From NCBI GenBank assembly GCA_949287245.1, contig CASEFL010000001.1, positions 138,973 to 202,972 on the forward strand: a stretch of 64,000 nucleotides of DNA. Reading direction: 5' to 3'. Positions within the stretch are counted from its first letter, which is position 1. The number at the start of each line of letters is the position of its first letter. Shown piece by piece: positions 8,361-52,875 of the stretch. Origin of the DNA: an uncultured Bacillota bacterium. Lineage in GTDB: Bacteria > Bacillota_I > Bacilli_A > RFN20 > CAG-826. A program made the position numbers and the translations under genes. The notes beneath the pieces are model-generated. The model made no database searches. It was not told the DNA's origin and saw only the letters and a list, made by a program, of their open reading frames with translations.

Positions 8361-9219
8361 ACCCTAATTTACCTAGCATTCGCACATCATCCCGCCAATG
8401 AGGAGAAGCAACAACAAAGCAATGCAATCGCACATGTTTAGAAAAACGTGAACGCAAATCCTTTTCTGCATTAGAGCGAATTTTTTCGATCATTTGGCCG
8501 TTTTTCCCGATAACAATTCCTTTTTGAGAGTCTCTTTCAACATAAATATGAACTTTTGCTTCAATTTCTTTCTCATTTTCCTTACAAGAATCGACATGAA
8601 CAGCGGCTTGATGAGGGACCTCGTTATGAAGAAGCAAAAGCATTTTTTCGCGAATACTTTCTTGAATGAAATAGGAAGTATCTTTATCGGTTGTTGTTCC
8701 TTCTTCATAAAAGGGCAAAGATTCTGGTAGCTGTTTTTCCACCCAAAGGCGCGCATCTTTTAAGCCGAAATTGTTCTTAGCGCTCATCTCAAGATAAGGA
8801 ATTCCAAATAAAGAGGGGATTTTTTCTTTAATTTTTTCCATTTCTGGAGCCGTCATTAAATCAATCTTATTAAGCAATAACAAAATAGGAGCATCACTTT
8901 TTATACGGCGAAAAGCTTTTGCCGCTTCCTCTAAATTTTCATGGACATCTACAAGAAAAAGAATTGCATCTACTCCAGATAAAGCACGCCGTGCTTTCCG
9001 CATCATCTCTTTTTCTAATGAGTTACTTCCTTCCATTAAACCAGGAGTATCAATAAAAGCAATTTGTGCACCACTATCTTCATAAATTCCTAAAATATCT
9101 TCTCTAGTCGTTTGCGCTTTTGGGGTAACAATAGCCACTTTTTTGGATAAAAGAGCATTAAGAAATGTACTTTTTCCTGCATTAGGAAGGCCTAAGATTG
9201 CAACCGTTCCCGCTTTCAT
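8338..9219 (-). CDS. era: GTPase Era
   Basis: 293-aa ORF with G1 'GLPNAGKST' and G3 'DTPG' motifs, an NKID motif and a C-terminal KH domain. It overlaps cdd and recO, indicating an operon. Confidence 0.95.
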   Translation of the reverse strand: MKAGTVAILGLPNAGKSTFLNALLSKKVAIVTPKAQTTREDILGIYEDSGAQIAFIDTPGLMEGSNSLEKEMMRKARRALSGVDAILFLVDVHENLEEAAKAFRRIKSDAPILLLLNKIDLMTAPEMEKIKEKIPSLFGIPYLEMSAKNNFGLKDARLWVEKQLPESLPFYEEGTTTDKDTSYFIQESIREKMLLLLHNEVPHQAAVHVDSCKENEKEIEAKVHIYVERDSQKGIVIGKNGQMIEKIRSNAEKDLRSRFSKHVRLHCFVVASPHWRDDVRMLGKLGYGKRRDR

Positions 9220-9617
9220 TGCATATCCTCTTCTTCAAAAGCATAAGGGAGAAGTTCTTCTATTGTTGTTTGCTGAATATCTCCGCATAAATTTGCTAAA
9301 TATATAGGAGCGCGCAAAGGGAAAAGTTCCGATAATACCTGACGACAAGCCCCACAAGGAGAAACTGGGCGTTTACAGTCAGCAACAATTGCTAAAGCAA
9401 GAAAATCTTCCTTCTTTTTTCCTTCCATTAAGGCATGATATATCGCATTTCTTTCCGCACACATGCATAAAGGATAACTTGCATTTTCCACATTTGCTCC
9501 ATAATAAATAGAACCATCGCTGCATAAAAGAGCAGCCCCGACAGCAAAATGACTATAAGGAGAATAAGACAGTTTTCTTGCGCTTATTGCTTCTTCAATT
9601 AATTGTTTCGTTTCCAT
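9216..9617 (-). CDS. cdd: Cytidine deaminase
   Basis: 133-aa ORF with the zinc-binding motifs 'CAERNAI' and 'PCGACRQ'. Confidence 0.9.
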   Translation of the reverse strand: METKQLIEEAISARKLSYSPYSHFAVGAALLCSDGSIYYGANVENASYPLCMCAERNAIYHALMEGKKKEDFLALAIVADCKRPVSPCGACRQVLSELFPLRAPIYLANLCGDIQQTTIEELLPYAFEEEDMQ

Positions 9618-10102: not shown

Positions 10103-11275
10103 CTAAGAAAGCGAGAGAAAGCGTTCAAAAAAAGCATCCGCTAATGCCTGTCTTTTCTTTTTCTGCAAAAAATATTGTAAAAAACTACGAAACGTCTTGC
10201 TCAGAATAAAAAGAGATAAAAAAGCGCTAATAAAACCATAAAAGGAACTTCCTTGTTCATTGCCCCATAAGGCAAGAAAAGATAGACCAAATAAAGGAAG
10301 GAGAGAAGACAAATCAAATACCCGCAAGGAAAAAGCAAGTTTTGATGCGGTTTTGCTTAATTCTGCCCCTTTTTTATATGCGAAAGGTTCTTCTAACATT
10401 TTGGCCTCTTTCCTTTCTAGTTTTTCTTTCTCTTTTGTAAAGAAATGTTCAAGGGGAAAATAACAAATTTCTAAAAGCAAGATAAAACAGGAAGCAAGAA
10501 AATAACCAAAGCCAAAAAAAGATACATAGGTAAAAAGACAAAGGGAAACAAGCAACGAGGCAAAAGAAGAGATGGGGCCAAGGAATACGCTTCCCTTATA
10601 ACGTTGGAACAAAAAGTAGTCTTCGCTATTTCCTCTTTCCGGAACAAGAAATAAATGATCTTTTTCAAAACGATTTAAGAAAAGAAAAATCGCTCCTTCC
10701 CTTAATAGAAAGAGGAGAAAAGCGGTTAAAAAGAAGGAAAATGCATATAAAAGACGTGGATCTTCCTCTAGAAAATAAAAACCAATAAGAAAAAACACCA
10801 ATTCAAGAAACAACAAAGAAAGGAGCAGTGGTAGAGTAAAATAATCAATTAATTTCGGTCTTTTTGGAGGAATTTCTTTTCGATCAAAATACCCCTCACC
10901 AAAAATTAACGACCATTTTTTCATCAATTCTTTCCCTTTTATCCAGTATTTTCCTTTTGCAGGATCATCAAGATAAAAATATTCCTTTCTCTTTTTTAAT
11001 AAAACGACAAGATGTCCATCTTTTCCTTCATTTAACAATAAAAGCAAAGGAAAACGTTTTGCTTCCTCTAAACAATTTGCATAACAAGAACGTTTCCAAA
11101 TAAGATTTACTCCAGCCTGTTTGGCTAAAAAACTCAGCTCTTGTAAATCATAAGCACCTTCATGATCCCTTTTTAAATAACGCCATCCTTTTTGTTTAGT
11201 AAAATAAATAAGAAAGGAACGTGTTGCGGCGTATCCACAACTATCGGGTTTTGCTTGATAAACTGTACCATTCAT
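10103..11275 (-). CDS. Peptidase C39 (double-glycine leader peptidase) domain fused to a ~6-TM membrane domain; no ABC ATPase domain
   Basis: The N-terminal ~130 aa carry the C39 motifs Q-x5-C ('YQAKPDSCGYAA'), His ('DGHLVVLL') and 'DDPAKGK'. The following ~240 aa form hydrophobic TM helices. No nucleotide-binding domain is present in the ORF or in neighbouring genes. Confidence 0.7.
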   Translation of the reverse strand: MNGTVYQAKPDSCGYAATRSFLIYFTKQKGWRYLKRDHEGAYDLQELSFLAKQAGVNLIWKRSCYANCLEEAKRFPLLLLLNEGKDGHLVVLLKKRKEYFYLDDPAKGKYWIKGKELMKKWSLIFGEGYFDRKEIPPKRPKLIDYFTLPLLLSLLFLELVFFLIGFYFLEEDPRLLYAFSFFLTAFLLFLLREGAIFLFLNRFEKDHLFLVPERGNSEDYFLFQRYKGSVFLGPISSFASLLVSLCLFTYVSFFGFGYFLASCFILLLEICYFPLEHFFTKEKEKLERKEAKMLEEPFAYKKGAELSKTASKLAFSLRVFDLSSLLPLFGLSFLALWGNEQGSSFYGFISAFLSLFILSKTFRSFLQYFLQKKKRQALADAFFERFLSLS

Positions 11276-15487: not shown

Positions 15488-16510
15488 TTAAACGGAATTC
15501 TTATTTTTTAAAGACAAAACCATTTCATAGGTTTCTTTTAATTTTTCCCCAACGCGGAATAAGGAACGTTCTTCGGCTACACGCCAACCCTCTTCTAGAA
15601 TTTCGCAATTTTTTCCCTTTTCCCGAAGTGAAGAAATAATATTCTTAAATTCATAGGGTGTATTTCCCATATAACAATTTTTCTTATCCGTTAACCAAGA
15701 GGAAAATACGGGAATCGGGCGTACAATCAAAGGAGTTTTGCTCGCTAAAGCTTCAAGAGCGACTATGCCTTCTGTTTCTTCATACGTAGGAAAAAGAACC
15801 GCCAAAGCTCCTTGATAACCCCCTTTAATCAAATCTCCTTTGCAATATCCAGGAAATGAGACGTTTTTTGGCGCATTTTTCATTGCTTTTAACACTTTTT
15901 GTTCCGTTAGAATTTTTTGCAGACTCCCTAACCAAAGAAAGCGGACATCAGGAAGTAAGCGGGCGGTTTCAATAAAATCAAAAATCCCCTTACGAACAAA
16001 AGGAAAACCAACACCTAACACATAAGGTTCATCACCTAATTGGAATTTTTCACGAAACAAAGCCACTTTTGTCTCATCCGCGGCATATTCTTCTAAATCA
16101 ATGCCATTTGATATATCTTTTATTTGACTTGGTGCAAGAAATTTTGTTAAAAGTTCTGCTGCATAAGGGGTAGGCGTGATAATAAAATCCGCATTCGTAT
16201 ACATTCTTCTTAAGAAAAAACGATAAAAAGGCTCTATAAGTTTCCAAAAACGGAAACTATTTTGGAAATCTTCATATGTACTATGACCGTGAACAATAAC
16301 AGGGATACCTTTTTTCTTACATTTTCGCAAAAGAGAATAACTTTTTGGCCAATAGGTATTGATATGAACAAGATCAACATCGCATTCTTCAAAAGAAGTA
16401 GTAGTCTCAACACCGGCAAAAGATAGGGCCCGTAATTGATGGGACATTGCGCGCCCAATTCCCGAACGAGCAATATGCTCCTGCCCTTCAAAATAAATAC
16501 AAACTTTCAT
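15488..16510 (-). CDS. GT4-family glycosyltransferase (glycolipid/MGS-like synthase)
   Basis: 340-aa ORF with a GT-B fold and the C-terminal E-x7-E motif ('EETEGIVALEALA'). It overlaps deoC by 4 nt. Confidence 0.8.
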   Translation of the reverse strand: MKVCIYFEGQEHIARSGIGRAMSHQLRALSFAGVETTTSFEECDVDLVHINTYWPKSYSLLRKCKKKGIPVIVHGHSTYEDFQNSFRFWKLIEPFYRFFLRRMYTNADFIITPTPYAAELLTKFLAPSQIKDISNGIDLEEYAADETKVALFREKFQLGDEPYVLGVGFPFVRKGIFDFIETARLLPDVRFLWLGSLQKILTEQKVLKAMKNAPKNVSFPGYCKGDLIKGGYQGALAVLFPTYEETEGIVALEALASKTPLIVRPIPVFSSWLTDKKNCYMGNTPYEFKNIISSLREKGKNCEILEEGWRVAEERSLFRVGEKLKETYEMVLSLKNKNSV

Positions 16511-17184
16511 CGTCTTGCACTAAGAAGTTCTTCCATAATGTCCACAGAAGCAGAACAACCTAAGCGGTTTGCGCCACTATCAATCATCCGATAGGCTTCT
16601 TCTAAAGTATGAATTCCTCCAGAAGCCTTGACGCCCATTGAATCACCAACGGTATTTCGCATTAACAAAACGTCTTTGGCTTTTGCGCCCCATTTTCCAA
16701 AACCAGTGGATGTTTTAACAAAATCAGCACCCGCTCTTTTTGCAGTTAAAGCGCTTTGAATAATTTCTTTCCTTTCTAAATAACAAGTTTCAAGAATAAC
16801 TTTTAATACAATGTGACGGTTGGGAGATACATCTTCTAAAGCTTGTTTGACTTTCAAAATTTCCCCCTCGATAAACTTATATTCCCCAGCATGAACCATG
16901 GCAATATTTTGCACCATATCGATTTCATCGGCTCCCGATAACACCGCTTCTTTTGCCTCACGAGCCTTTTGTTGAGGAGTTGTTTGGCCTAAAGGAAAAC
17001 CAACAACAGTGCAAACCTTAACATCGCTTTTTTGTAAAAGACGTGCGGCAACAGGAACATAAAAAGGATTCACGCATACGCTCATAAATTGATAGCGCAT
17101 CGCCTCATAACATAAACGCGTGATGTCGGCTAAAGTTGCATCAGCCTTCAAATTCGTATGGTCGAAATATTTGCTAAATCTCAT
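16507..17184 (-). CDS. deoC: Deoxyribose-phosphate aldolase
   Basis: 225-aa ORF with a TIM-barrel DeoC signature, including the Schiff-base lysine context 'DFVKTSTGF'. Confidence 0.9.
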   Translation of the reverse strand: MRFSKYFDHTNLKADATLADITRLCYEAMRYQFMSVCVNPFYVPVAARLLQKSDVKVCTVVGFPLGQTTPQQKAREAKEAVLSGADEIDMVQNIAMVHAGEYKFIEGEILKVKQALEDVSPNRHIVLKVILETCYLERKEIIQSALTAKRAGADFVKTSTGFGKWGAKAKDVLLMRNTVGDSMGVKASGGIHTLEEAYRMIDSGANRLGCSASVDIMEELLSARR

Positions 17185-17570: not shown

Positions 17571-18839
17571 TCAAGAATCATACTTATCGACTTCTTCTTT
17601 TTTTATAAGAATAGGCAGAATATCACCAACTTTTGCCCCAATAGCAGGATGAGCAACTCGTAAATAGCAAGAAAGATGACCATAAGCAATCCCTTCTTTA
17701 ACTTTCTCGACAAGAAGAGTTTCTTCCTTCCCATCCATTTCTTGAATATAAATATCTTCTAAATAGGAAGATAAATTCATAATCTCTTTTGTTCTTCCTT
17801 TCCGTACTTCAAAAGGAATATCCGGAAGATAGGAAGAACGTGTACCTTCTCTTTTGCTATAAGGAAAAACATGAATGCGAGAAAACTTCATTTCTTTTAA
17901 AAACGAAAGTGTTTCTTGATGTTCTTCTTCGCTTTCTAAAGGAAAACCAGCGATAACATCGGTAGTAATGCTTATATCAGGACGAACTTCCCTTAAGCGC
18001 TTAATTGAGGATGCGAATTGATCAGGCGTATATTTCCTTTGCATTCTCTCTAGTACGCTTTTTGAACCACTTTGAAGAGGAATATGAAGATGAGCGGCTA
18101 ACCGTTCTTCTTTTTCGTATAAAGATAATAAATCCTCATCTAATTCGCTTTCCTCTAAAGAGCCAAGGCGTAAACGGTGAAGACTTGGGCAAGAAGCTAA
18201 AATTTCTTTGCATAAAGAGGCAAGATTCATTCCTTCTTCTTTCCCATAAAAACCAATATGGGTTCCCGTTAGTACAAGTTCTTTTACCCCAAAAGAAGTG
18301 AGTAAAACCGCTTCCTTAATAACCTCTTCTTTTTTTCTTGAACGAGGATTTCCGCGTAAAAAAGGAATAAGGCAATAAGAACAAAAATTATTACACCCAT
18401 CCTCAATTTTTAGTGTCGCTCTTGCGCCTTCTAGCAAATGAGCAGCACCAAGTTCTTCATACCTTCTCTTTTGCAAAGGAAGCAAAGGAAAATGTGTTTT
18501 TTCATCTTGGTAATAAGCTTTTATAAGAGCTTGAATTGCTTCCTTTCGCGAAGTCGTCCCTAAAAGTACATCACTTTCAAGAAAAGGGTCTTTATGGTGT
18601 TCGGATGCACAGCCCATGACAAGAATTTTTGCCTTTGGAGCAACTCTTTTGAAACGATGAAACATTTGCCGAGATTTCTTTTCCGATAAAGAGGTTACGG
18701 CACAGGTATTAAGAATAATTAAATCAGCATCCTCAGGAATAAAGACGATTTCCCCACCTTTCTCCTTTATTTCTTCTGCTAAAGCGCTTGTTTCATATTC
18801 ATTGGTTTTACAACCTAAAGAATGACAATACACTTTCAT
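17571..18839 (-). CDS. mtaB: Radical-SAM tRNA methylthiotransferase, MtaB/YqeV-like (MiaB family)
   Basis: 422-aa ORF with an N-terminal MTTase Cys triad (C..C..C), the radical SAM 'CNNFCSYC' motif and a C-terminal TRAM domain. Context rsmE...mtaB matches Bacillus yqeU–yqeV. Confidence 0.85.
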   Translation of the reverse strand: MKVYCHSLGCKTNEYETSALAEEIKEKGGEIVFIPEDADLIILNTCAVTSLSEKKSRQMFHRFKRVAPKAKILVMGCASEHHKDPFLESDVLLGTTSRKEAIQALIKAYYQDEKTHFPLLPLQKRRYEELGAAHLLEGARATLKIEDGCNNFCSYCLIPFLRGNPRSRKKEEVIKEAVLLTSFGVKELVLTGTHIGFYGKEEGMNLASLCKEILASCPSLHRLRLGSLEESELDEDLLSLYEKEERLAAHLHIPLQSGSKSVLERMQRKYTPDQFASSIKRLREVRPDISITTDVIAGFPLESEEEHQETLSFLKEMKFSRIHVFPYSKREGTRSSYLPDIPFEVRKGRTKEIMNLSSYLEDIYIQEMDGKEETLLVEKVKEGIAYGHLSCYLRVAHPAIGAKVGDILPILIKKEEVDKYDS

Positions 18840-19645
18840 AATAAATCTTCCTCAATAAGTGATGGCGCGGGAAGAGAAAGGCGTAATCTTGCTTTTCGAT
18901 AACGCATCAGTACTTCACGAGAAACAAGTTTTCCTCCTAAAAGATAACGATAAAAAGAGTCTTGATCGTTATGGAAATAGGCTTCTGCCACACGTTCAAT
19001 CCGCTTCATAACATGGGTTTTGCCAGGGTTTTTTAAAAACCGATCAAAGAAGGCCAAAGAAGCTTCTAATCGGCCTTGAGGAGTAATGAAATAAAGCCGC
19101 TCCGCATCATAATCATACATAGCTAAACTTTCTTGATATTCATATACGCGAACCAGTTTAGTGAAGTAACTATCAAATAAAGATGCTCCCCAATAATCAA
19201 ATGGATCCATAAGGATGGAATCAAAATCTCGTAATAAACGAGTATAAGGAGGAATTTCCATCTTAAAAAAATCAACAGCGTAAATCCGATTTAATGCGCG
19301 AGAAAAAAATGGGATAAAAATCTTTTCCCCTTGGTAATCATAATAAGGGAGTTCCGCCATTGCTTCTTTCATATATATATCAACTGGCAAGTTGTTTTCT
19401 TCTTTCTCAGAAAGTCGAACTTTTGCAAGATAAAGACGTTCAATTACCCTTTTATTTACAAGTGCACGAAGAATAATATTGCTTCGCGTAACCTCAAAAG
19501 AATTCATGGGATGTTGATAAAGTTTAAAGGGCTCATGTGCAGATAAAAGATAAGAATTTTTATCAAAAAAAGTAGCCTCTGTCCCATGGGAAAAAGGGGT
19601 GGCACGTTTATTCTTCTCTAAAAAATCAAAAATATTTAACGCCAT
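18836..19645 (-). CDS. Hypothetical protein (no recognisable domain)
   Basis: 269-aa ORF translationally coupled to both rsmE (10-nt overlap) and mtaB (4-nt overlap). I could recognise no motif. Confidence 0.5.
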   Translation of the reverse strand: MALNIFDFLEKNKRATPFSHGTEATFFDKNSYLLSAHEPFKLYQHPMNSFEVTRSNIILRALVNKRVIERLYLAKVRLSEKEENNLPVDIYMKEAMAELPYYDYQGEKIFIPFFSRALNRIYAVDFFKMEIPPYTRLLRDFDSILMDPFDYWGASLFDSYFTKLVRVYEYQESLAMYDYDAERLYFITPQGRLEASLAFFDRFLKNPGKTHVMKRIERVAEAYFHNDQDSFYRYLLGGKLVSREVLMRYRKARLRLSLPAPSLIEEDLL

Positions 19646-39065: not shown

Positions 39066-41137
39066 TTAGATAAATCCAAAATATGTAATCGTTCCTTCCT
39101 CATCTGTTCGTCGAATTTTAATATCAAGATCTTGCAATCGTTTAAGAACCTCGTTATCTGGATGACCATACGAATTTCCTTTTCCTACCGAAATTATTGC
39201 TTCATCAGGTTCAATTGCCTTCAAAAATTCTAAAGATGATGAAGTTATAGATCCGTGATGCCCAATTTTTAACACATCTGCTTTTAAACTTTCATTGTCA
39301 TCTAAAATTTTCTTTTCTATTTCGATAGGAGCATCCCCCATAAACAAGAAGTCACGATTAAGGAAATTTTCTAGATATAGGACTAATGATTTAGAATTTT
39401 CGTCCTCACCTCCATAAATATTTAAGTTATTAAAAGTTAAAGATCCTACTTTTAAAGGAAATTCCTCTTCCTCTCGAACAATATCTTTAATTAAAAAAGA
39501 ATCATACAAAGAAGGTAACGCTCCGTCATGATCAAAATCTCCATGGGTAATAATCACACAATCAAGTTTTTTTATACCACGAGTCTTAAAAAACGGAATT
39601 AAAGTTTCCTCCGCTAAATCAAAAGTTTTAGTTCCCCCTGTATCGATAAGTACAGTAGTTCTGCCCTCACGAATTAATATAGCGTCCCCTTGCCCGACAT
39701 TAAGAAAAGTAACTTCTTTCGTTAAAAAAGAAAAAGAAGGAAAAAGATTAAGAAAAAGAAGAGGCGTTACATATAAAAAGATGCTAATTTTTCCCCAAAA
39801 ATGGAACCCAAGGGAGACCATAAGAAGAAAAATGGCTAAGAAAAAGAAATGAAAGTAGAACGCCCCTTCCGGATATAAAAACGGAACACAAATATCTATT
39901 CTTTCCCATAATTTGGCCATATTCATGAGAAAGGAAGCATAGACATTTAATGCCCCAGGTAACGGCAGGAATAGTCCTAACACACCAAGTAAACAGAAAG
40001 GGGCAACAAAAGGGAAAAAGAGCATAGTTCGCAAAGGAGAGAAAAGCGATAATTCGTTTTTACTAGGAAAAGAAGGAAAAAGAAGAAGAATTAGAAATAC
40101 AAATGAAATCATTTTTCTTTTCCCAGGCGAAAAACGAAGGAAAAGGCCTGAGGATAAAGAAAAGAAAATAGAAAGAAGAAAACTATAAAGAAACCCTTTA
40201 TCCATACACAAAGTGGAATCAATAAGGAGAAAAAGAATTCCTATACAACTAGTAAGGATAAGAGATGGAACGCGCTTTTGATTTTTTAATTCGGCATAAG
40301 AATGCACGCTTTTTGTAAGAAAAATTCTCCAAATTCCCACTTTATGTACTAGAAAAGGAAGAGGCAAAAATGCAAGAACCCAAGTAAGAATTAACGTTGT
40401 TTTGCTCGTTAGAAATCTTCCAAAAACCATGAATTAAACCGATTATATGCCTGATAAATGAAACCACTTGCACTTAAACAATAAATCAATCCGGCCTCTT
40501 GAAATACATCTAGGGCAATAGCTTCATAATCTTTCCGATCAAAAAGTAGGGAATCTAACAGTATCGAGGCTTCTCCTCCTACCCCTTTTAACGCATTTAG
40601 CGACCATTTTCGAAAGCGAAGAGGAAGAGAAAATATGTTGATGATATCTCCTTGGAATGAGGAAGTTACTCCTTTATCTACTAAGTAAGTCGTGAAAGAA
40701 AAGCGACCTTCGTATTCCGTAAAGGATAATGGCGAGAAATTTCCATTTAAAGATAAAATATCCCCAACCTCGCGAAGGCAGTCTTTTTCATATACGTACA
40801 CTCGCGAAAAACCACTTTATAAAAGAAAGTAATTATCTTTTGCACGAACCACAATTCCTGTTATTTCCAACTTTCCCAAAAAATCTTCTTTTGGTAGAAA
40901 GAAAACAATTAATCCGATTAAAGCGCCTAAAAGGTAAACTATATAGCGTTTTTCTTTGCGAAAGAAAAACAAACATAAAAGAAGGGAAAGAAAAACTGGT
41001 AAAGCAGAAAATCTTGGCAATAGTCGCAGAAACAATCCACTAAGGAAAAGGCCGAAAAAAGCGGGAGGGGCAAAAGGGAGAAGAAACTTTGCCCGCTCCT
41101 TAAAACGAGTTAGCGGAGAGTCACAAGATCTTTGCAC
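39066..41137 (-). pseudogene. comEC: comEC/rec2 DNA-uptake channel gene, apparently disrupted (in-frame TAA plus a frameshift)
   Basis: Three consecutive ORFs cover one ComEC-length locus of about 690 aa. ORF 40817-41137 is the N-terminal TM part, ORF 40409-40801 the DUF4131-like OB region, and ORF 39066-40430 the competence TM domain plus an MBL domain ('LNVGQGDA', 'ITHGDFDHDG'). The first two share a frame and are separated only by TAA at 40817-40819. The second and third differ by one nucleotide in the A5/T5 run 40422-40426; a sixth T would restore the frame. Confidence 0.6.
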
Positions 41138-41658
41138 TTTTCAAATGTTGCTGGTCCAATACCCTTAACATCATCAAGCTGTTCAATACATTCAAAAGCA
41201 CCCTTTTCGAGCCGATAATCCACAATGGCTTGGGCAACGGTTTCACTAAAAGCGCTAACCACTTCCCGCAAACGATCTTTGCTATCGGTGTTAATACATG
41301 CTTTTTCAATTGGTTCAGTCGCACAAACGTCACTGTTGTCGTATAAAGGCGCAATATAGAAGCTTGTTCTTGTACCAATTTCTAAATTAGCATCGTAAGC
41401 ACTTGGATCAGCGTTTCCTGTTGCAGACCCGGCAGCCAAAATTAAATCACCTAAAGTAGAATTTGACTCAATAAGATAAGTTCCTTCGCGATTTACTTCA
41501 CCAGTAATCGATACTTGGATTGTTTCTCCATCATTAACAACAATACCATTGCTTACTAAATCGCCATCACTCATCCCGTTATCGACCGCACCTAAAACAA
41601 CTAATCCGATGATGGTCGCGATTACAACACCAATGATGACTTTAATCATTTTTATCAC
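41110..41658 (-). CDS. comEA: ComEA DNA receptor (helix-hairpin-helix competence protein)
   Basis: 182-aa ORF with an N-terminal TM anchor, a SLBB-like domain and a C-terminal tandem HhH ('IEQLDDVKGIGPATFEKCKD'). Confidence 0.85.
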   Translation of the reverse strand: MIKMIKVIIGVVIATIIGLVVLGAVDNGMSDGDLVSNGIVVNDGETIQVSITGEVNREGTYLIESNSTLGDLILAAGSATGNADPSAYDANLEIGTRTSFYIAPLYDNSDVCATEPIEKACINTDSKDRLREVVSAFSETVAQAIVDYRLEKGAFECIEQLDDVKGIGPATFEKCKDLVTLR

Positions 41659-45598: not shown

Positions 45599-45669
45599 CA
45601 CTCCTTTTGCCTTAATCGCGGCAAAGTATAGCGCGCGTCGCGCGTGCAAGAAAGAGAAAAGCACTTTTC

Positions 45670-47025
45670 TTATTTTTTTATGGAAAAATAAGAGAATTTA
45701 AGAGACGAACCTTTCACTTGATGGATATAACATTCATTTTTGGGATAAAAAAGAGAAGTCATCCATACTCGTCCTTTGCCCAAAACAACCTCAATCACAC
45801 TATGATCGACAATAATTTCAATTTCTTCTTGTGGGAGAACTTTCACGCATCGCTCCCCGGGATAAGTTAGATTTATACCTTCTTTTTCGTAAAGACTTCC
45901 ATGGGCATCCATGGTCAAAACCATGCTTCTTTCATCATAAGAAAGAAGAAATTCTTCCTTTTGATTTTTAAAAAAGGAACAAGTGAAATCTTTATACGAA
46001 GAAAAATGAAGATATAAAAATTGATGATCATCAATTTCAAAGAAATCCCCATCAAAATCCCCTTCTTTTTTTAGATTTTCATAAAAAGAGGGCATAATCT
46101 CTTGGCAAAAATCTCCATTTTTTAAAGTAAGTTTACGGGGTAAACCCATCGTACCAATATAGCCTTCCTCTTTACTAGGAATGCTTCCTAAATCTTTATC
46201 CCAAAGACAATTCCAGCCGATCATAGCCGCACACTTTTCATCGATTTGACAAGGCAGTGCAGCGTAAAAGTCATAACCATAATCTAATGAAGTTAATGAA
46301 GAAGTGGAGACAAATTTTAAATGTTCGTCAATTTTGCCTTTTCGCATTAAATTTGGATGTAAGCCCCACTTTTCCTTATTTAAACCCATGGGAGAGAAAA
46401 ACAAGAAGCATTCCCCTTCAAGAAAAATAAGCGAAGGACATTCCAACATATAGGTTCCTTCTTCTTGATAAAAAATTCCCATGTAAGATAAAGAAGTCCC
46501 ATTTCTTTCATATAAGAGAATAGAACCTACCTTACCCACTTGTGCCCCTACAAGAACATAGTTTTTTTCTTCGTAAGAAAAAGCAAAAGGGTCGCGAAAA
46601 TATTCTTTCGGAACAAAAGGAGGAGGAGAGATAAGGTTAATTGCAGAATCAAGAAAATAATACGAGTGATAAGGCCGTGCGAATGCTAAATATTCACCAT
46701 TTATCGAACATGCGGTATATAGCAAATATTCATCCTCGTTTTCTTTGATATAAGTTCCGCTCCAGCAACCGCCCCACAAAGGTTTAATCCCTACGCCTTC
46801 AAAAGAAGAAGAAGGAATTAAAGAAGCACCAAAATCATGAAAATTTATTAGGTCTTTGCTTGTTGCCTTTCCCCAATCAATGAGAACATCGCCACTAAGA
46901 GCGTTATGGTGTTGATAAAAAAGAGTGTAAACACCATTTTTTGAATCAAAAGAAAAGCCATTTGGATCGTTCATCCATCCAATTTTGGGAGAAAAATGAA
47001 GTTCAGGCCGAAAAGTTTTTTTCAT
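45670..47025 (-). CDS. Glycoside hydrolase family 32 (sucrose-6-phosphate hydrolase/invertase-like)
   Basis: The 'WMNDPNG' catalytic nucleophile motif sits near the N-terminus, and an 'EC' motif ('YMLECPSL') is present. No signal peptide. Confidence 0.85.
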   Translation of the reverse strand: MKKTFRPELHFSPKIGWMNDPNGFSFDSKNGVYTLFYQHHNALSGDVLIDWGKATSKDLINFHDFGASLIPSSSFEGVGIKPLWGGCWSGTYIKENEDEYLLYTACSINGEYLAFARPYHSYYFLDSAINLISPPPFVPKEYFRDPFAFSYEEKNYVLVGAQVGKVGSILLYERNGTSLSYMGIFYQEEGTYMLECPSLIFLEGECFLFFSPMGLNKEKWGLHPNLMRKGKIDEHLKFVSTSSLTSLDYGYDFYAALPCQIDEKCAAMIGWNCLWDKDLGSIPSKEEGYIGTMGLPRKLTLKNGDFCQEIMPSFYENLKKEGDFDGDFFEIDDHQFLYLHFSSYKDFTCSFFKNQKEEFLLSYDERSMVLTMDAHGSLYEKEGINLTYPGERCVKVLPQEEIEIIVDHSVIEVVLGKGRVWMTSLFYPKNECYIHQVKGSSLKFSYFSIKK

Positions 47026-47714
47026 ATCTTAATTGTTTCTGCGCTTTCTCTAGTTCCAAAAATTTGGGCCATCGTTTTTGTTCCCCCAAAGGGAGTGCCC
47101 CAACCACCTGGATAATTATAAAATTCTGAAAAACGATCATAATGGTCTTCTGTGTAATAAATCACAGGAATTCCTTCCCCGTAATCCGTAATTCCCTCAA
47201 CAACAATAACAAGACGTCCAGCCCCGCGAGAAGTAGGACTATAAACACCATCAATATCGATATCAAGCTCTAAATATTCTCCTCGATATTCACAAAATGT
47301 TCCTAAAGATTCTGTATAAGAATTGGAACCTTGATAATCCCCTTGATGATAAGACTTCCATAACCGTCCTTCTCTTCCATACGCTTGCGCTAACTCTTTC
47401 CCGTTCCCTTCATTTTCAAAATAGTTCATGGGTGTGGTATGAAAAGCAAGATAAAAAAGCGCAACTTCTTCAAAATCAGTATAAGGCTCATAAAGATTTA
47501 AGGTGTATTGATATTCTTTCTTAAAACTCTCACCATCATTAGAAATAGAGTAAATATCTGCATTTTCTCCATCTAAAGAAATTTGAGGATTAATTCGATA
47601 AAAGGTATTTTCGTGAATAGAAGAAGAGGAAGAGGATGGGGACGCTTTATATTCACAAGAAGCAAATACAAGAGAGAATAAAGTGAGAATACAAAGAAGA
47701 AAATTTCTTTTCAT
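47022..47714 (-). CDS. Secreted lipoprotein ribonuclease, barnase/RNase Sa/T1 (N1/T1) family
   Basis: The start is set at MKRNFLLCILTLFSLVFASC, which gives a lipobox. A Ser-rich linker follows. The catalytic region 'FENEGNGKE...RGAGRLVIVVEG...YYTEDHYDRF' aligns with RNase Sa 'FQNRESVLP...RGTRRIICGE...YYTGDHYATF'. Confidence 0.75.
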   Translation of the reverse strand: MKRNFLLCILTLFSLVFASCEYKASPSSSSSSIHENTFYRINPQISLDGENADIYSISNDGESFKKEYQYTLNLYEPYTDFEEVALFYLAFHTTPMNYFENEGNGKELAQAYGREGRLWKSYHQGDYQGSNSYTESLGTFCEYRGEYLELDIDIDGVYSPTSRGAGRLVIVVEGITDYGEGIPVIYYTEDHYDRFSEFYNYPGGWGTPFGGTKTMAQIFGTRESAETIKI

Positions 47715-47715
47715 A

Positions 47716-48633
47716 TTATTCACCAAAAACCCAGTCGATCGCGGAAGGATTATCCACATATGGATTGCGGTTTCCTTGAATTTCATAAACTGCTTCGTTT
47801 CGATCAATTTCTTTTTGAGAAACAGGGTCTTCCTTTGCCCATTTAACAAACATTGTTTGACTCCAAGTAGTTAAACCTAAAGAACGTGTTGGGGTAATAT
47901 TTTGCCTTTGGTTATTCACCCAAGAATTGTGCGAGGAATAACAAGTAACAAAATAAAAGTAAATTCTTGCAAAATCCCCTTTATACTCATCAATGGGTTC
48001 AAAAACTGTTCCCGTATAAGCAGGATCAGAAGACTTCCCTAGTTTTGAACCATTTTTAGAGGTATAGGTGGCACTTCCTACTTCACCAAGAGGGAAATTA
48101 CTACGTTTCCCGTTCACATATCCGTCTGTAGGAATAATATGATGCAAATCGGTATACATGGGGTTTGCATCATCAAACCAACTTTTTGGCACACTATGTT
48201 CGCGGTTATAGCAATCCCCCTCGTTTTTGTAATTTCCACATTGTTGGCCTGTTTTGGTCCATTTTTCATCACTATACATGTCCCAAAGGCTTCCATCTTC
48301 GCGAACATCGGTTTCCCAAAAAGCGCTCCATAATTCTTTATAAGAAAGCTGCGTATGGGGACGAATCGTTGAGGTTAAAGACTTCATTAAAGATACGCCG
48401 CGTAACGACCAATCAACATCTTCATAATACCTTTCAACTTCTATGGGAAAATCAGGCAATGAAAAAGAAAAAGAGGTGTTAGAAGAAGAATTTTCAGTAA
48501 AAGAGCTACTTTCTTTAGAAGAAGGATCAAAAGAAGAGAAAGAAGAACTCTCTCCCCAAACACAGCCGCTTAAACTAAAGATTCCCATTAAACTTAGAAG
48601 GATAATCTTTTTTGATACTTTCATAGTCTTCAT
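47716..48633 (-). CDS. Extracellular endonuclease I family DNase (EndA/Vvn-like), lipoprotein
   Basis: Signal peptide plus lipobox (LSGC) and a Ser-rich linker, with the endonuclease I motifs 'NREHSVPKSW' and 'QGNRNPYVDNP'. Confidence 0.8.
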   Translation of the reverse strand: MKTMKVSKKIILLSLMGIFSLSGCVWGESSSFSSFDPSSKESSSFTENSSSNTSFSFSLPDFPIEVERYYEDVDWSLRGVSLMKSLTSTIRPHTQLSYKELWSAFWETDVREDGSLWDMYSDEKWTKTGQQCGNYKNEGDCYNREHSVPKSWFDDANPMYTDLHHIIPTDGYVNGKRSNFPLGEVGSATYTSKNGSKLGKSSDPAYTGTVFEPIDEYKGDFARIYFYFVTCYSSHNSWVNNQRQNITPTRSLGLTTWSQTMFVKWAKEDPVSQKEIDRNEAVYEIQGNRNPYVDNPSAIDWVFGE

Positions 48634-48636
48634 CCA

Positions 48637-49905
48637 TTATGCGTTTTGCCAAGCAAGAGGCATCTGACGGTTATTTTTAAACCATTCAGTGTCCTTTAAT
48701 TTTAGTGAATTATTAGAAAACTTCCACGTCTCTTTTCCCACTTCATCATATTCGACAACAACCGTACCATTCATGGGTCGATAAAAACGAGAATCTTCCC
48801 ATGACCCTTCTTGCGTAACATAAACGCGGTCAGTATAAGGCGCGATGCGGTCAATTGTCTCTTGGGCAGGAAAACTGTGATTGGGATCAGAGGCATATTC
48901 TTTAGTCCCTGCTGTACATTCAAAAACAATAGCGTCAGGACTTGTCGCCTTTAAAAGTTCCTCCCCTGTCGCGGTATAAGAACCATGATGGCCACCCTTA
49001 TATAAAACAACATTCGCAGGCAAATTATTTTCCTTCACTAAAGAATGCTCGCTCCAAGCCTCCGAATCTCCTGTAAAAAGCATGCTTTTCTTTCCTTGAT
49101 GAAAAAGAACGGAAATAGAATAGTCGTTTTCTTCACTAAAACTACCTCCGACTTCTGGATAGTCATTTTTAAAGTCAGTACGGTCATGGTCATAAAAGTA
49201 GTTATAAAGTACTTCCATAGAAGTTCCTTCACCAAAGTTAAAAATCCTTTTTGCCCCATTATTTTCTTTTACGCAGTCCAAAGCAGTATAAACTTCCGTC
49301 CCTCTTTCTTTCAAAAAGTTCACGGCCTCTAAATAATCTTTATAAATTTGAGTTGAGGCATCCGTAAGAGGAAATTGAATTAATGTATCCACCGCAAAAT
49401 TATAAAAGACACCTGTTCGTCCATTAGGAAGAGAATCGTCTTGATTCCCAACAAAACCAGCAATATGGTCTTGATGAGCATGAGTAGCAATCACCAGTTC
49501 AAGTTTTTTATCTGGAACATATTGATTTAAATATTCACAAATAACGGCTCCTGAACCTTTTCTAGCGCCCGCATCAATTAAAATGTCGTAATCTCCAGCC
49601 TTAATGTATGTGCAGTCGCCCGTATACTGTGTATTTAAATCAAGAAAATGAAAAGATATTGGAGTGAAACCATCCTCGGCACCCGTACTAGAACTCGTTG
49701 AGTTTGTTGACGTATTTAGAGAACTTGACGAACTCGAACCTTCATTTCCACTACCTGATGAAAGTGAGGAAGAAAAAAGAGGAAGGATAAAGGTGTAGGC
49801 AACATATACGCTAACAGCAAGCAAAACAATCAAAAGTAATGACAATAAAGCGTAGACAAGTTTTTTCTGTTTTCTTTTTCTTTTTGGCATAATTATATTA
49901 TCCAA
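48637..49905 (-). CDS. Membrane-anchored extracellular MBL-fold metallo-hydrolase (ComEC-C-terminal-like)
   Basis: N-terminal TM helix, a Ser-rich linker and the MBL motif 'ATHAHQDHIAGF'. Confidence 0.7.
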   Translation of the reverse strand: MDNIIMPKRKRKQKKLVYALLSLLLIVLLAVSVYVAYTFILPLFSSSLSSGSGNEGSSSSSSLNTSTNSTSSSTGAEDGFTPISFHFLDLNTQYTGDCTYIKAGDYDILIDAGARKGSGAVICEYLNQYVPDKKLELVIATHAHQDHIAGFVGNQDDSLPNGRTGVFYNFAVDTLIQFPLTDASTQIYKDYLEAVNFLKERGTEVYTALDCVKENNGAKRIFNFGEGTSMEVLYNYFYDHDRTDFKNDYPEVGGSFSEENDYSISVLFHQGKKSMLFTGDSEAWSEHSLVKENNLPANVVLYKGGHHGSYTATGEELLKATSPDAIVFECTAGTKEYASDPNHSFPAQETIDRIAPYTDRVYVTQEGSWEDSRFYRPMNGTVVVEYDEVGKETWKFSNNSLKLKDTEWFKNNRQMPLAWQNA

Positions 49906-49931: not shown

Positions 49932-51062
49932 TTAGGATATTTGTTTCTCTTTACGGTAGACTTTATCAATAATACCCCCACCAAGAAGTATGCCTTCTTT
50001 TGTATAAATTGCCGCCCATTGGCCAGGAGTAACCGCTTTTGCTAAATTTTTATGAGTCAAATAAGCAGTTGTGCCCTTAAGAGAAAGTAGACACGGAATA
50101 TCCTTACTTCGGTAGCGGAATTTAACAAAACATTCGCTATTCTCTTCAGGAAGTGGTTCGATAAAATTGCATTCTTCTAATATTGAAGCATCCGAATATA
50201 AAAGTTCTTCTTGATCCCCTTGTGCGACATGAAGAACATTATTTCCAACATCTTTTCGATACACATACCATCGACCGTCGTTATGATGAGAAATACCACC
50301 AATCCCCAAGCCTTTTCGTTGTCCTAAGGTATAAAACATGACTCCTTCATGTTGTCCCAAGATCGATCCGTTTTCCCCTTCCACAATATTCCCTTTTTGA
50401 GCAGGCATATAGTTTTCTAAAAAGGGGCGAAAATTCCGTTCACCAATAAAACAAATTCCTGTTGAACCATGTTTCGCCTCGCATTCAACAAGCCCTAAAT
50501 CATGCGCCAAAAATCGTGCTTCTTTTTTTGTAATTTTATCCATAGGAAAAAGAGAAAACGCAATTTGCTCTTCGGTCAAATTGCAAAGAAAATACGTTTG
50601 GTCTTTTTCTAAATCCAAAGGTTTTGCTAAATGATAGTGGCCTTTATAGAAAACTTTTTTGGCATAATGACCCATGGCAATTGCCCCAAAACCATGTTCT
50701 TTTGCGTATTTTAAAAACGGGCCGAACTTGATTTCGCTATTACAAAGAATATCCGGATTGGGTGTACGTCCTTTTTTATATTCGGACAAAAAATTCTCAA
50801 AAACATCTCGCCAATACTCTTTGACAAAATCAATGCGAATCAAAGGTATATCAAGTCTTTTTGCTAGTTTTTGAGCATCTTGATAATCTTTTTCTTGTGG
50901 GCATTGATCCGCGCTCACATCAGGATTACCTAAATAATCATTATTGAGTAAAGAATCCCAATTCCGCATAAAAGCACCGGTAACTTCATGACCTTCTTTT
51001 TTTAGCAAATATGCCGCAATTGAGGAATCAACTCCACCAGAAAAACCTAATAAAACTTTCAT
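49932..51062 (-). CDS. mnmA: tRNA-specific 2-thiouridylase MnmA
   Basis: 'GFSGGVDSS' PP-loop motif plus the conserved MnmA C-domains. Confidence 0.95.
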   Translation of the reverse strand: MKVLLGFSGGVDSSIAAYLLKKEGHEVTGAFMRNWDSLLNNDYLGNPDVSADQCPQEKDYQDAQKLAKRLDIPLIRIDFVKEYWRDVFENFLSEYKKGRTPNPDILCNSEIKFGPFLKYAKEHGFGAIAMGHYAKKVFYKGHYHLAKPLDLEKDQTYFLCNLTEEQIAFSLFPMDKITKKEARFLAHDLGLVECEAKHGSTGICFIGERNFRPFLENYMPAQKGNIVEGENGSILGQHEGVMFYTLGQRKGLGIGGISHHNDGRWYVYRKDVGNNVLHVAQGDQEELLYSDASILEECNFIEPLPEENSECFVKFRYRSKDIPCLLSLKGTTAYLTHKNLAKAVTPGQWAAIYTKEGILLGGGIIDKVYRKEKQIS

Positions 51063-51520
51063 TTATGCTCCTTAAATAAGGCTACCGAATCAAGAATTAA
51101 AGTAAAGGGACCATCATTGATAGAAGAAACCTCCATATCTTCTCCAAAAACTCCTGTTTGGAGCCTTGGATAAGAAAGACGAAGAAAAGAATTAAAATAA
51201 TGATAAAGAGCAGATGCTCTTTCTGGCGATAATGCTTCAACAAAACTAGGACGATTTCCTTCCTTTACGTTTCCATATAAAGTGAACTGACTAACTGAAA
51301 GGATATTTCCATTAACGGCAGTCAAAGAAAGATTTGTTTTCCCTTTTTCATCCTCAAAAATACGTAAATTAATCACTTTTTTAACCATCTTTTCAACGAT
51401 TTCTTCGTTATCGCCATAAGTAAACCCAACAAGAAGTAAAAAACCTTGATCAATGGAAGCGTGAAGTATTTTATCAATATACACTTCCGCTTTTTTAACG
51501 CGCGTAAGAACGATTCTCAT
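51059..51520 (-). CDS. dtd: D-aminoacyl-tRNA deacylase
   Basis: The start is set at MRIVLTRVKKAEV. The 'SQFTLYG' and 'NGPFT' DTD motifs are present. Confidence 0.9.
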   Translation of the reverse strand: MRIVLTRVKKAEVYIDKILHASIDQGFLLLVGFTYGDNEEIVEKMVKKVINLRIFEDEKGKTNLSLTAVNGNILSVSQFTLYGNVKEGNRPSFVEALSPERASALYHYFNSFLRLSYPRLQTGVFGEDMEVSSINDGPFTLILDSVALFKEHK

Positions 51521-51521
51521 C

Positions 51522-52823
51522 TTAACGAATATAATCAAGAAGAATAGAAGGTGCAGCAATTTTTTCTTTTTTAATTAAGAAAGCATCGCTTGCATCATCT
51601 TTTGCTCTTCCGATATCCTCCTTATTCGTATAAAGGGTGCAAAGTACATCTCCTTTTTGAACAAAGTCTCCAACCTTTTTTGCTAAAACAATTCCTGAGG
51701 AATGATCAATTTCATCTTGCATGGTTGCTCTTCCTGCTCCAAGACGCATAGCCGTTAAACCGATAGCTAAGCTATCAATATGGTGAACATAACCATCTTT
51801 TTCAGCATAAACAGGAATAATCAGAGAAGAAATAGGGAATTTGCAGGGATTTTCAATATAAGAAACATCTCCTCCTTGCTTTATTACCATTTCTTTTAAT
51901 TTTTCTAAACCTTTCCGATTATCAATCGCTTCCTGTATTTTCCTTTCCCCTTCTTCTTCTGTTTTTGCAATTTTTGCTTGGCAAAGCATAATTGACCCTG
52001 CCTTTAAAATTAACTCGTGGAAATCTTTTGGCCCATGTCCATTAAGCTCATCGATTGCTTCTTTTACTTCTAAGGCATTTCCTACGGCATAGCCAAGCGG
52101 TTCTTCCATCCCGGTTAAAATCGCCCTTGTATCACGATTTAAGTGTTTCCCGATTTTTACCATGAGATGCGCCAATTCTTGTGCAGACTTTTTTGTTTTC
52201 ATAAATGCGCCTGCACCAACTTTTACGTCTAATAAAATGGTATCCGCCCCTGCAGCAAGTTTTTTACTCATAATAGAAGAGGCAATTAATGGGATAGATT
52301 CAACCGTTCCTGTAACATCACGAAGCGCATAAAGCTTTTTATCTGCAGGATCAACTTCTTTTGTTTGTCCAACAATGGCCAAACCGATTTCGTTCACCTG
52401 ATGAATAAAGTCATCAATGCTTAATTGAATTTTAAAACCCGGAATAGATTCTAATTTATCTAAAGTTCCCCCGGTATGACCAAGACCTCTTCCCGACATT
52501 TTAGCTAATTTTGCCCCACAAGAGGCTACCAAAGGTCCTAAAGCAAGAGATGTTTTATCTCCGACACCACCCGTTGAGTGCTTATCAACAGTCGCCCCTT
52601 GAATTTTTGAAAGATTAATCGTCTCGCCGCTATGTTCCATAGCGTCTGTTAAAAAGGAAGTTTCTTCTTCATTCATTCCTTGAAACAAAACAGTCATTAA
52701 GAATGCGCTCGTCTGGTAATCAGGAATCGAACCATTACTTACTCCACGAATAAAATATTGAATCTCGTCTTTGGTCAATATTTTTCCATCTCTTTTTTTC
52801 TCGATTAAATCAACCATTCTCAT
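51522..52823 (-). CDS. pdp: Pyrimidine-nucleoside (thymidine) phosphorylase
   Basis: The start is set at MRMVDLIEKKRDG, which has an AGGGAG ribosome-binding site. The 'DKHSTGGVGD' phosphate-binding motif is present. Confidence 0.9.
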   Translation of the reverse strand: MRMVDLIEKKRDGKILTKDEIQYFIRGVSNGSIPDYQTSAFLMTVLFQGMNEEETSFLTDAMEHSGETINLSKIQGATVDKHSTGGVGDKTSLALGPLVASCGAKLAKMSGRGLGHTGGTLDKLESIPGFKIQLSIDDFIHQVNEIGLAIVGQTKEVDPADKKLYALRDVTGTVESIPLIASSIMSKKLAAGADTILLDVKVGAGAFMKTKKSAQELAHLMVKIGKHLNRDTRAILTGMEEPLGYAVGNALEVKEAIDELNGHGPKDFHELILKAGSIMLCQAKIAKTEEEGERKIQEAIDNRKGLEKLKEMVIKQGGDVSYIENPCKFPISSLIIPVYAEKDGYVHHIDSLAIGLTAMRLGAGRATMQDEIDHSSGIVLAKKVGDFVQKGDVLCTLYTNKEDIGRAKDDASDAFLIKKEKIAAPSILLDYIR

Positions 52824-52875
52824 AAACGAAACACTCCCTATCACATCTAACTCTTTTTTCAAGTATAATTATAGT

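Follow-up and report, generated by a model that had tools for sequence, protein, structure and literature searches.

Why should three genes for putatively exported nucleases lie end to end among housekeeping genes in the genome of an uncultured Bacillota bacterium? The question is raised by a 64-kb stretch of that genome (GenBank assembly GCA_949287245.1, contig CASEFL010000001.1, forward-strand positions 138,973 to 202,972), here called the window, in which four co-oriented minus-strand genes occupy positions 45670-49905 with almost zero spacing. They encode a membrane-anchored hydrolase with a metallo-beta-lactamase (MBL) fold, an endonuclease I homologue, a barnase-like RNase and a glycoside hydrolase of family GH32. 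A sequence-only reading of this interval had proposed that the cluster is a surface battery of nucleases for nucleotide scavenging, or alternatively that the RNase is a toxin. Every element described in that reading was located, including the peptides NREHSVP, QGNRNPYVD, FENEGNGKE and YYTEDHYDRF, all of which are found in the translations. Three of the genes probably encode nucleases tethered to the membrane that break down RNA and DNA outside the cell for salvage, as judged from export signals, catalytic residues and the history of the locus. The four genes are:

48637-49890, minus strand: MBL hydrolase, ComEC-type, membrane-anchored (Pfam Lactamase_B), 417 aa from an ATG
47716-48624, minus strand: Endonuclease_1 (PF04231) lipoprotein, from an ATG start, 302 aa in the public call
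47022-47714, minus strand: barnase-fold RNase lipoprotein, 230 aa
45670-47025, minus strand: GH32 beta-fructofuranosidase (Pfam Glyco_hydro_32N/32C), 451 aa, without a signal peptide

The gaps between the MBL, endonuclease I, RNase and GH32 genes are 12, 1 and -4 bp, respectively. The start of the MBL gene is the ATG at 49890 in the public call, which is 100% identical; the TTG at 49905 given by the lister of open reading frames (ORFs) is five codons upstream.

Export signals and catalytic domains

The export calls are based on a PROSITE-style (PS51257-type) lipobox pattern and on hydropathy. The endonuclease I homologue and the RNase both have a charged n-region, a hydrophobic h-region and a lipobox cysteine within about 35 residues, the lipobox being SLMGIFSLSGC (Cys21) in the former and LTLFSLVFASC (Cys20) in the latter. 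There is no lipobox in the MBL protein, which begins with MPKRKRKQKK and then has a hydrophobic segment some 29 residues long. With the positive-inside rule, this layout points to a signal anchor and a catalytic domain outside the cell. The lipoboxes and the membrane anchor claimed for these proteins are thus upheld by pattern and hydropathy, and the serine-rich linker that had been reported after each anchor is present. The serine content of the linkers is 41-44%; that of the MBL protein is rich in Ser, Thr, Asn and Gly, that of the endonuclease is about 35 aa long and that of the RNase is short. A lipobox is present in 58% of the RNase family and an N-terminal hydrophobic segment in 77%, the latter also being found in 89% of the MBL family, which suggests that both families are generally exported. 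No N-terminal hydrophobic segment is present in the GH32 protein, and the presence of export signals on all three nucleases and not on this neighbour is counted in favour of a surface location.

On the strength of its sequence, the RNase truly belongs to the barnase fold and has its catalytic set intact. It falls just short of the Pfam gathering cut-off for Ribonuclease PF00545 (23.7 bits against 24), and only a minority of its homologues have a precomputed match to that family. An NCBIfam scan of the RNase gave no match and a single-sequence phmmer search against the PDB returned nothing relevant. The initial homologue search yielded five close homologues only, and the profile made from these matched essentially only barnase and binase in the PDB, across barnase residues 5-107. 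An exhaustive hidden Markov model (HMM) search identified 540 representative clusters at E <= 1e-3, with 179 at E <= 1e-10. A family HMM of 153 sequences scored 32.7 bits on barnase (residues 6-107), with RNase Sa aligned too, and hhalign of a 43-sequence alignment against barnase gave a probability of 96.4% (E = 1.3e-9). The RNase has the alpha+beta fold of barnase; its structure model was made from a 100-sequence alignment, an earlier model from 5 sequences having been discarded (predicted local distance difference test score of 59.7, with meaningless Foldseek matches). The domain, of about 195 aa, comprises the barnase core, a beta-hairpin N-terminal to it and a C-terminal extension that is conserved (FSEFYNYPGGWG...). 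Conservation of the residues corresponding to the catalytic site was counted in 153 representatives of 50%-identity clusters:

E149: barnase E73, RNase Sa E54; 153 of 153 representatives
R163: barnase R83, RNase Sa R65; 151 of 153
R167: barnase R87, RNase Sa R69; 153 of 153
H191: barnase H102, RNase Sa H85; 153 of 153
Y192: barnase Y103, RNase Sa equivalent not recorded; 152 of 153

The alignment of E149, R167 and H191 with E54, R69 and H85 of RNase Sa bears out the assignment of this protein to the barnase/RNase Sa family, and the near invariance of the catalytic residues indicates selection for activity. Many members of the family are 400-480 aa or larger with the RNase domain at the C-terminus, and some of the large ones contain Big_2, Listeria-Bacteroides or collagen-like repeats. 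Those sources that name any of the homologues, which are Erysipelotrichaceae, Acholeplasmatales and Bacilli metagenome-assembled genomes, call them 'hypothetical protein'. The public call for the window RNase (245 aa) begins 15 codons upstream (47714-47759), overlapping the endonuclease gene; the start that gives the 230-aa lipoprotein agrees better with the RNase homologues.

The endonuclease I homologue matches Pfam Endonuclease_1 over nearly the whole of the profile (positions 6-234 of 235; E = 1.5e-76, 257.7 bits against a cut-off of 25). Its catalytic domain, of the His-Me finger family, spans residues 83-296 of 302. In the PDB it matches Vibrio endonuclease I and Vvn with E values of 1e-8 to 2e-5; its N-terminal half alone had no matches there by phmmer. 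MAFFT places the E-H of NREHSVP on Glu79-His80 of Vvn (REH on Vvn WEH) and VNGKRSNF on Vvn VNGDRSNF, which includes Asn127. The Vvn sequence used is that of 1OUP except at the H80A mutation of 1OUP, and it is this single difference that confirms the assignment of the catalytic histidine. The predicted alignment of the NREHSVP histidine with Vvn His80 is therefore correct. The description of this protein as an endonuclease I-family DNase lipoprotein stands as regards the family and the lipobox at Cys21. Specificity for DNA does not follow, since the family includes the Mg2+-activated RNase Bsn of Bacillus subtilis (PMC5714182), and 'DNase' is better read as 'nuclease'. In the closest relatives of the window (L002 3465-5859; L008 7602-9999; L009-L011) there are two tandem endonuclease I paralogues, of about 466 and 314 aa, the larger being extended at its N-terminus by about 150 aa, where the window has a single such gene.

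The MBL protein matches Pfam Lactamase_B (E = 2.8e-9) and is composed of the cytoplasmic MPKRKRKQKK segment, a single transmembrane segment, the linker, the catalytic domain and a conserved C-terminal region of about 90 aa. Its highest NCBIfam scores are for Avs1a (51.7 bits) and blaAHM (51.3 bits), both generic matches to the N-terminal part of the MBL fold, followed by TIGR00361 ComEC_Rec2 (50.2 bits), which matches the C-terminal half of the domain. It is not a full ComEC/Rec2, the TIGR00361 score being far below the cut-off of 190 bits, with a single transmembrane segment and no Competence domain. There are more than 3165 homologues, mostly of 400-470 aa, to which the sources give the names 'competence protein ComEC' or 'MBL fold metallo-hydrolase'. 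When a profile of 35 of these was compared with the PDB, the six best matches were all to ComEC (9vc6, 9ic4, 30bt, 9vcb, 9vcf and 9vc9), with E values from 4.9e-12 (9vc6) to 1.7e-7. The motifs H137-A-H139-Q-D141-H142, G274-D275 and H301-H302-G-S are invariant or nearly so in the 35 homologues. With the N-terminal anchor and the Lactamase_B match, these conserved metal motifs sustain the description of the protein as a transmembrane-anchored MBL-fold hydrolase. By its sequence relationships, it is a stand-alone, single-transmembrane homologue of ComEC's C-terminal domain and not a ComEC. That domain in ComEC is extracellular and is an Mn2+-dependent phosphodiesterase and DNase (PMC8579336; see also PMC5031224, PMC12455585).

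A role for the MBL protein in a defence system was considered. The PADLOC matches were only generic (LmuA, Avs1a and RTasMBL, over about 60 residues of the N-terminal MBL fold) and this candidate was rejected because the domain is predicted to be extracellular and a partner protease or ATPase is lacking. The other proteins of the cluster had no PADLOC matches. No other nuclease family was matched by the three proteins in Pfam at E <= 0.01.

Position and history of the cluster

The gene order around the cluster is glgB, a small ORF, plsC, rsmB (on the opposite strand), pdp, dtd, mnmA, MBL, endonuclease I, RNase, GH32, alaS, ruvX, a small ORF, greA, comEA, comEC and holA. The 5' flank contains:

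51522-52862, minus strand: pdp, pyrimidine-nucleoside phosphorylase (Pfam)
51059-51559, minus strand: dtd (Pfam)
49932-51062, minus strand: mnmA (Pfam), its stop at 49932 being 5' of the MBL gene

A scan for promoters and terminators found nothing convincing within the cluster or between it and pdp-dtd-mnmA, promoter-like sites being fewer than in shuffled sequence. This is consistent with read-through from the upstream genes. Rfam and tRNA scans of the window were both empty.

Related loci were sought by a scan of one genome per species and compared by tblastn of the window proteins. The 19 loci found to have a relative of the RNase are all in uncultured Bacilli, Mollicutes or Erysipelotrichaceae-type bins. 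Several 'cleanbin' records among the related loci (L012, L014, L019-L021, L023, L025 and L026) bear such titles as Escherichia coli, Prevotella, Bacteroides uniformis and Faecalibacterium, names that are evidently wrong for a Bacilli-type locus. In every sufficiently long locus of the 19, and also on several metagenome contigs, the order runs from pdp-dtd-mnmA to the MBL gene and on through the RNase gene to alaS. Identity to the window is 38-57% for the RNase and 56-66% for AlaS. What lies between the MBL and RNase genes, and after the latter, differs. The closest relatives, with RNases that are 55-57% identical, have two endonuclease I paralogues and a GH32 gene; in more distant relatives (38-49%) the MBL gene is followed directly by the RNase gene and then alaS, with no GH32 gene. 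The MBL-RNase pair is therefore ancestral at the site, and endonuclease I and GH32 were inserted in the subclade of the window. A comparison across related genomes thus supports the cluster in part, with the MBL-RNase pair kept throughout and endonuclease I and GH32 confined to this subclade. The proposed battery of three stands as a surface nuclease set, of which only the MBL-RNase pair is the conserved core; GH32 is merely a neighbour. In one related locus (L028 6994-9290) the MBL gene is followed by two barnase-like paralogues, of 300 and 429 aa, the longer with an N-terminal part of about 190 aa that recurs commonly across the wider RNase family.

The GH32 protein, a cytoplasmic hydrolase of sugars, is unrelated to the nucleases and takes no part in their function; it happens to be coupled in translation to the RNase. 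It matches Glyco_hydro_32N (E = 1.3e-50) and 32C (E = 5.4e-8), has the motifs WMNDPNG, RDP and EC in its translation, and scores 193 bits against TIGR01322 scrB_fam, below the cut-off of 356. The earlier placing of a cytoplasmic GH32 enzyme at the 3' end of the cluster was correct, as was the ATGA formed by the overlap of the RNase stop and the GH32 start. A functional coupling of GH32 to the nucleases was rejected, since the enzyme is cytoplasmic and most of the genomes with the MBL-RNase pair lack its gene. The spacer of about 70 nt that separates the stop codon of GH32 from the probable start of alaS contains a perfect GC-only hairpin (CGCGCGACGCGCG; 45631-45644, minus strand), which has no U-tract and no Rfam match.

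Elsewhere in the window, at 18836-19645 and 10103-11275 (minus strand), there are a 269-aa ORF without a Pfam match and a 390-aa protein with an N-terminal Peptidase_C39 domain only and no ABC transporter part.

Scavenging and its alternatives

In the salvage interpretation, the three nuclease genes are most likely co-transcribed with the upstream pdp-dtd-mnmA, and their products would be displayed on the outer face of the cytoplasmic membrane. From its sequence features, the MBL protein would be a type II membrane protein whose N-terminus lies in the cytoplasm, while the endonuclease and the RNase would be exported via Sec and lipid-modified at Cys21 and Cys20, respectively. In each case the flexible serine-rich tether would keep the catalytic domain off the membrane. 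By homology, the endonuclease I homologue may make metal-dependent cuts in DNA and possibly RNA, and the RNase may cleave RNA by Glu/His acid-base transesterification, leaving 2',3'-cyclic and then 3'-phosphate ends. Further degradation of DNA or of the resulting oligonucleotides would be a plausible role for the MBL protein, given its relatives. The products could then enter nucleoside or nucleotide, phosphate or carbon salvage. The analysis establishes the order of the genes, their export signals and folds, the retention of catalytic residues and the synteny; the surface location, the substrates, the co-transcription and the physiological purpose are inferred. Genes for nucleoside salvage and catabolism are present in the window (cdd, 9216-9617; deoC, 16507-17184; and pdp), and pdp belongs to the same gene string as the nucleases. 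Lipoprotein nucleases are known to serve nucleotide salvage in mycoplasmas (PMC11729948, PMC9740415).

Several observations weigh against this interpretation. The similarity of the MBL protein to ComEC is mainly in the C-terminal half of the domain and is modest, at 22-48 bits. The guanine-recognition loop of barnase (N58-R59-E60; N39-R40-E41 in RNase Sa) is absent from the RNase, the window having E135-S136-L137 at a site that is variable in the family, although the preceding aromatic residue Y133 is kept in 150 of the 153 representatives. With the loop lost, base specificity should not be assumed and substrate specificity may differ from that of barnase. The MBL-RNase pair is conserved along with all of the flanking housekeeping genes, so that its persistence may reflect plain vertical synteny rather than functional coupling. 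Finally, distant members of the RNase family (L030, L031, L033 and L034; 414-483 aa) occur alone among unrelated genes with no MBL neighbour, which makes any coupling of MBL and RNase lineage-specific.

It has to be asked whether the barnase-like lipoprotein, with or without the other nucleases, might instead be an antibacterial competition toxin, passed to or shed onto nearby cells, with the producer's immunity protein encoded elsewhere. Barnase-fold domains do serve as C-terminal toxin modules in polymorphic toxin systems (PMC3482391), and in the wider RNase family it often forms the C-terminal end of large surface proteins that contain Big_2, Listeria-Bacteroides or collagen-like repeats. 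An immunity gene was sought in the window and in related loci, and none was found. A phmmer search with barstar of all ORFs of at least 40 aa in the window and 27 loci, which is of limited sensitivity, gave a best E value of 2.8; Pfam searches of small, intergenic and antisense ORFs near the cluster revealed no barstar and nothing else; and the gene tables of L028-L035 contain no PF01337. The genes of the cluster are packed too tightly to hide a further ORF. The statement that no barstar-like immunity ORF is adjacent thus holds for the window and extends to 35 related loci, 64 kb of the present genome having been searched, and no other small conserved ORF follows the RNase gene in any of them. 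In addition, the RNase gene is at a fixed position amid housekeeping genes and diverges in step with them, which indicates vertical inheritance and not the cassette-swapping of polymorphic toxins, and the protein carries a lipoprotein anchor and lacks any domain known for toxin delivery. Taken together, the lack of an immunity gene, the vertical inheritance at a housekeeping site and the lack of a delivery domain make the contact or competition toxin that had been suggested very improbable. The scavenging set is favoured over it on the first two of these grounds.

Two further explanations keep the nucleases at the cell surface and give them another purpose. The presence of comEA and comEC about 5 kb downstream on the same strand, and the homology of the MBL protein to a ComEC domain, might suggest accessories to DNA uptake that cut and process DNA at the membrane as it enters and feed ComEA/ComEC, like NucA of B. 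subtilis and EndA of Streptococcus pneumoniae; roles of membrane nucleases in transformation are known (PMC8579336). However, alaS, ruvX and greA lie between the cluster and the comEA-comEC-holA-rpsT block, the adjacency of this block is conserved like that of all the other housekeeping genes, and DNA uptake offers no task for an RNase. In relatives the stand-alone MBL protein occurs beside a complete ComEC, encoded by one ORF of 656-692 aa, that contains an MBL domain of its own. In the window, comEC (39066-41137, minus strand) is an apparent pseudogene in three ORFs, with an in-frame TAA near 40814 and a frameshift, such that the match to the 692-aa ComEC of a relative is divided between frame -1 (41137-40394) and frame -3 (40415-39072); comEA (41110-41658) is intact. 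Competence may truly have decayed here, or the disruption may be an artefact of assembly. With comEC disrupted and the nucleases intact, the latter would not be serving competence only, and an accessory role in uptake is improbable as the main function. The nucleases might, as another option, act mainly in remodelling or escaping extracellular nucleic-acid matrices, such as the DNA of biofilms or host neutrophil or mucosal DNA traps, with feeding secondary. Surface and secreted nucleases do so in mycoplasmas and other bacteria (PMC9740415, PMC5758888) and the related contigs were binned from gut and rumen metagenomes. An RNase would be less obviously useful against DNA matrices, and the sequence gives no separation of this role from scavenging, the two not being exclusive; as the main function it is given a low probability.

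A broader proposal concerns the RNase and the MBL protein. The RNase would belong to a large unannotated branch of the barnases (at least 540 clusters at 50% identity, mostly from uncultured Bacilli, Mollicutes and Erysipelotrichaceae) that is independent of barstar and is kept harmless in the producer by its extra N- and C-terminal elements or by obligatory lipoprotein export. It would also be the obligate partner of the MBL phosphodiesterase in a two-step process, in which the RNase yields 2',3'-cyclic or 3'-phosphate oligonucleotides and the MBL protein converts these to importable units. As a whole this proposal is tentative and rather unlikely to hold in all of its parts.

The probable assignment to salvage would, if correct, provide a testable nutritional mechanism, in which tethered enzymes act on extracellular DNA and RNA, for uncultured gut and rumen Bacilli with Mollicutes-like features, and could aid the design of culture media for them. 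The analysis also puts a name, that of a divergent lipid-anchored barnase, to a family of several hundred clusters now labelled 'hypothetical', and raises the question of how the cell tolerates an RNase of the barnase type with no barstar gene beside it. No existing knowledge is overturned; known enzyme families and a known lifestyle strategy are extended.

Comparison with known nuclease systems

Each of the three enzymes is a new member of a known family, and together they form a variant of a lifestyle strategy that is already known. The RNase is part of a sizeable barnase branch that is unannotated, has added structural elements and has no barstar next to it. The RNase differs from barnase, binase and RNase Sa in that these are freely secreted whereas the window protein has a predicted lipid anchor. 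Compared with barnase, it has an additional N-terminal beta-hairpin, a beta3-beta4 hairpin that is 8 residues longer and a conserved C-terminal extension of about 35 residues, and it is without both the N58-R59-E60 motif and an adjacent barstar gene.

The endonuclease resembles EndA of E. coli, Vvn/EndA of Vibrio and Bsn of B. subtilis in its full-length family match, in the equivalents of Glu79, His80 and Asn127, and in its predicted location outside the cytoplasm. It differs from Vvn in being a Gram-positive-type lipoprotein with a serine-rich tether, in a 43-residue insertion before the catalytic histidine and in the loss of most of the Vvn cysteines. The MBL protein shares with the C-terminal domain of ComEC from B. 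subtilis and Moorella thermoacetica (PMC8579336, PMC12455585) the HxHxDH, GD and HHGS motifs and a predicted extracytoplasmic location. Unlike ComEC, it has neither the competence channel nor the OB domain, has one transmembrane segment and carries the extra C-terminal region of about 90 residues, and the same lineage also has a normal ComEC.

A parallel in logic exists with the membrane nucleases of Mycoplasma, MnuA and its relatives, where surface lipoprotein nucleases are tied to nucleotide salvage in a Mollicutes-type cell. The mycoplasma membrane nucleases are mostly of the staphylococcal-nuclease type or of other folds. The enzymes of the window belong to other families, and they are found in an uncultured gut and rumen lineage of Bacilli rather than in a mycoplasma.

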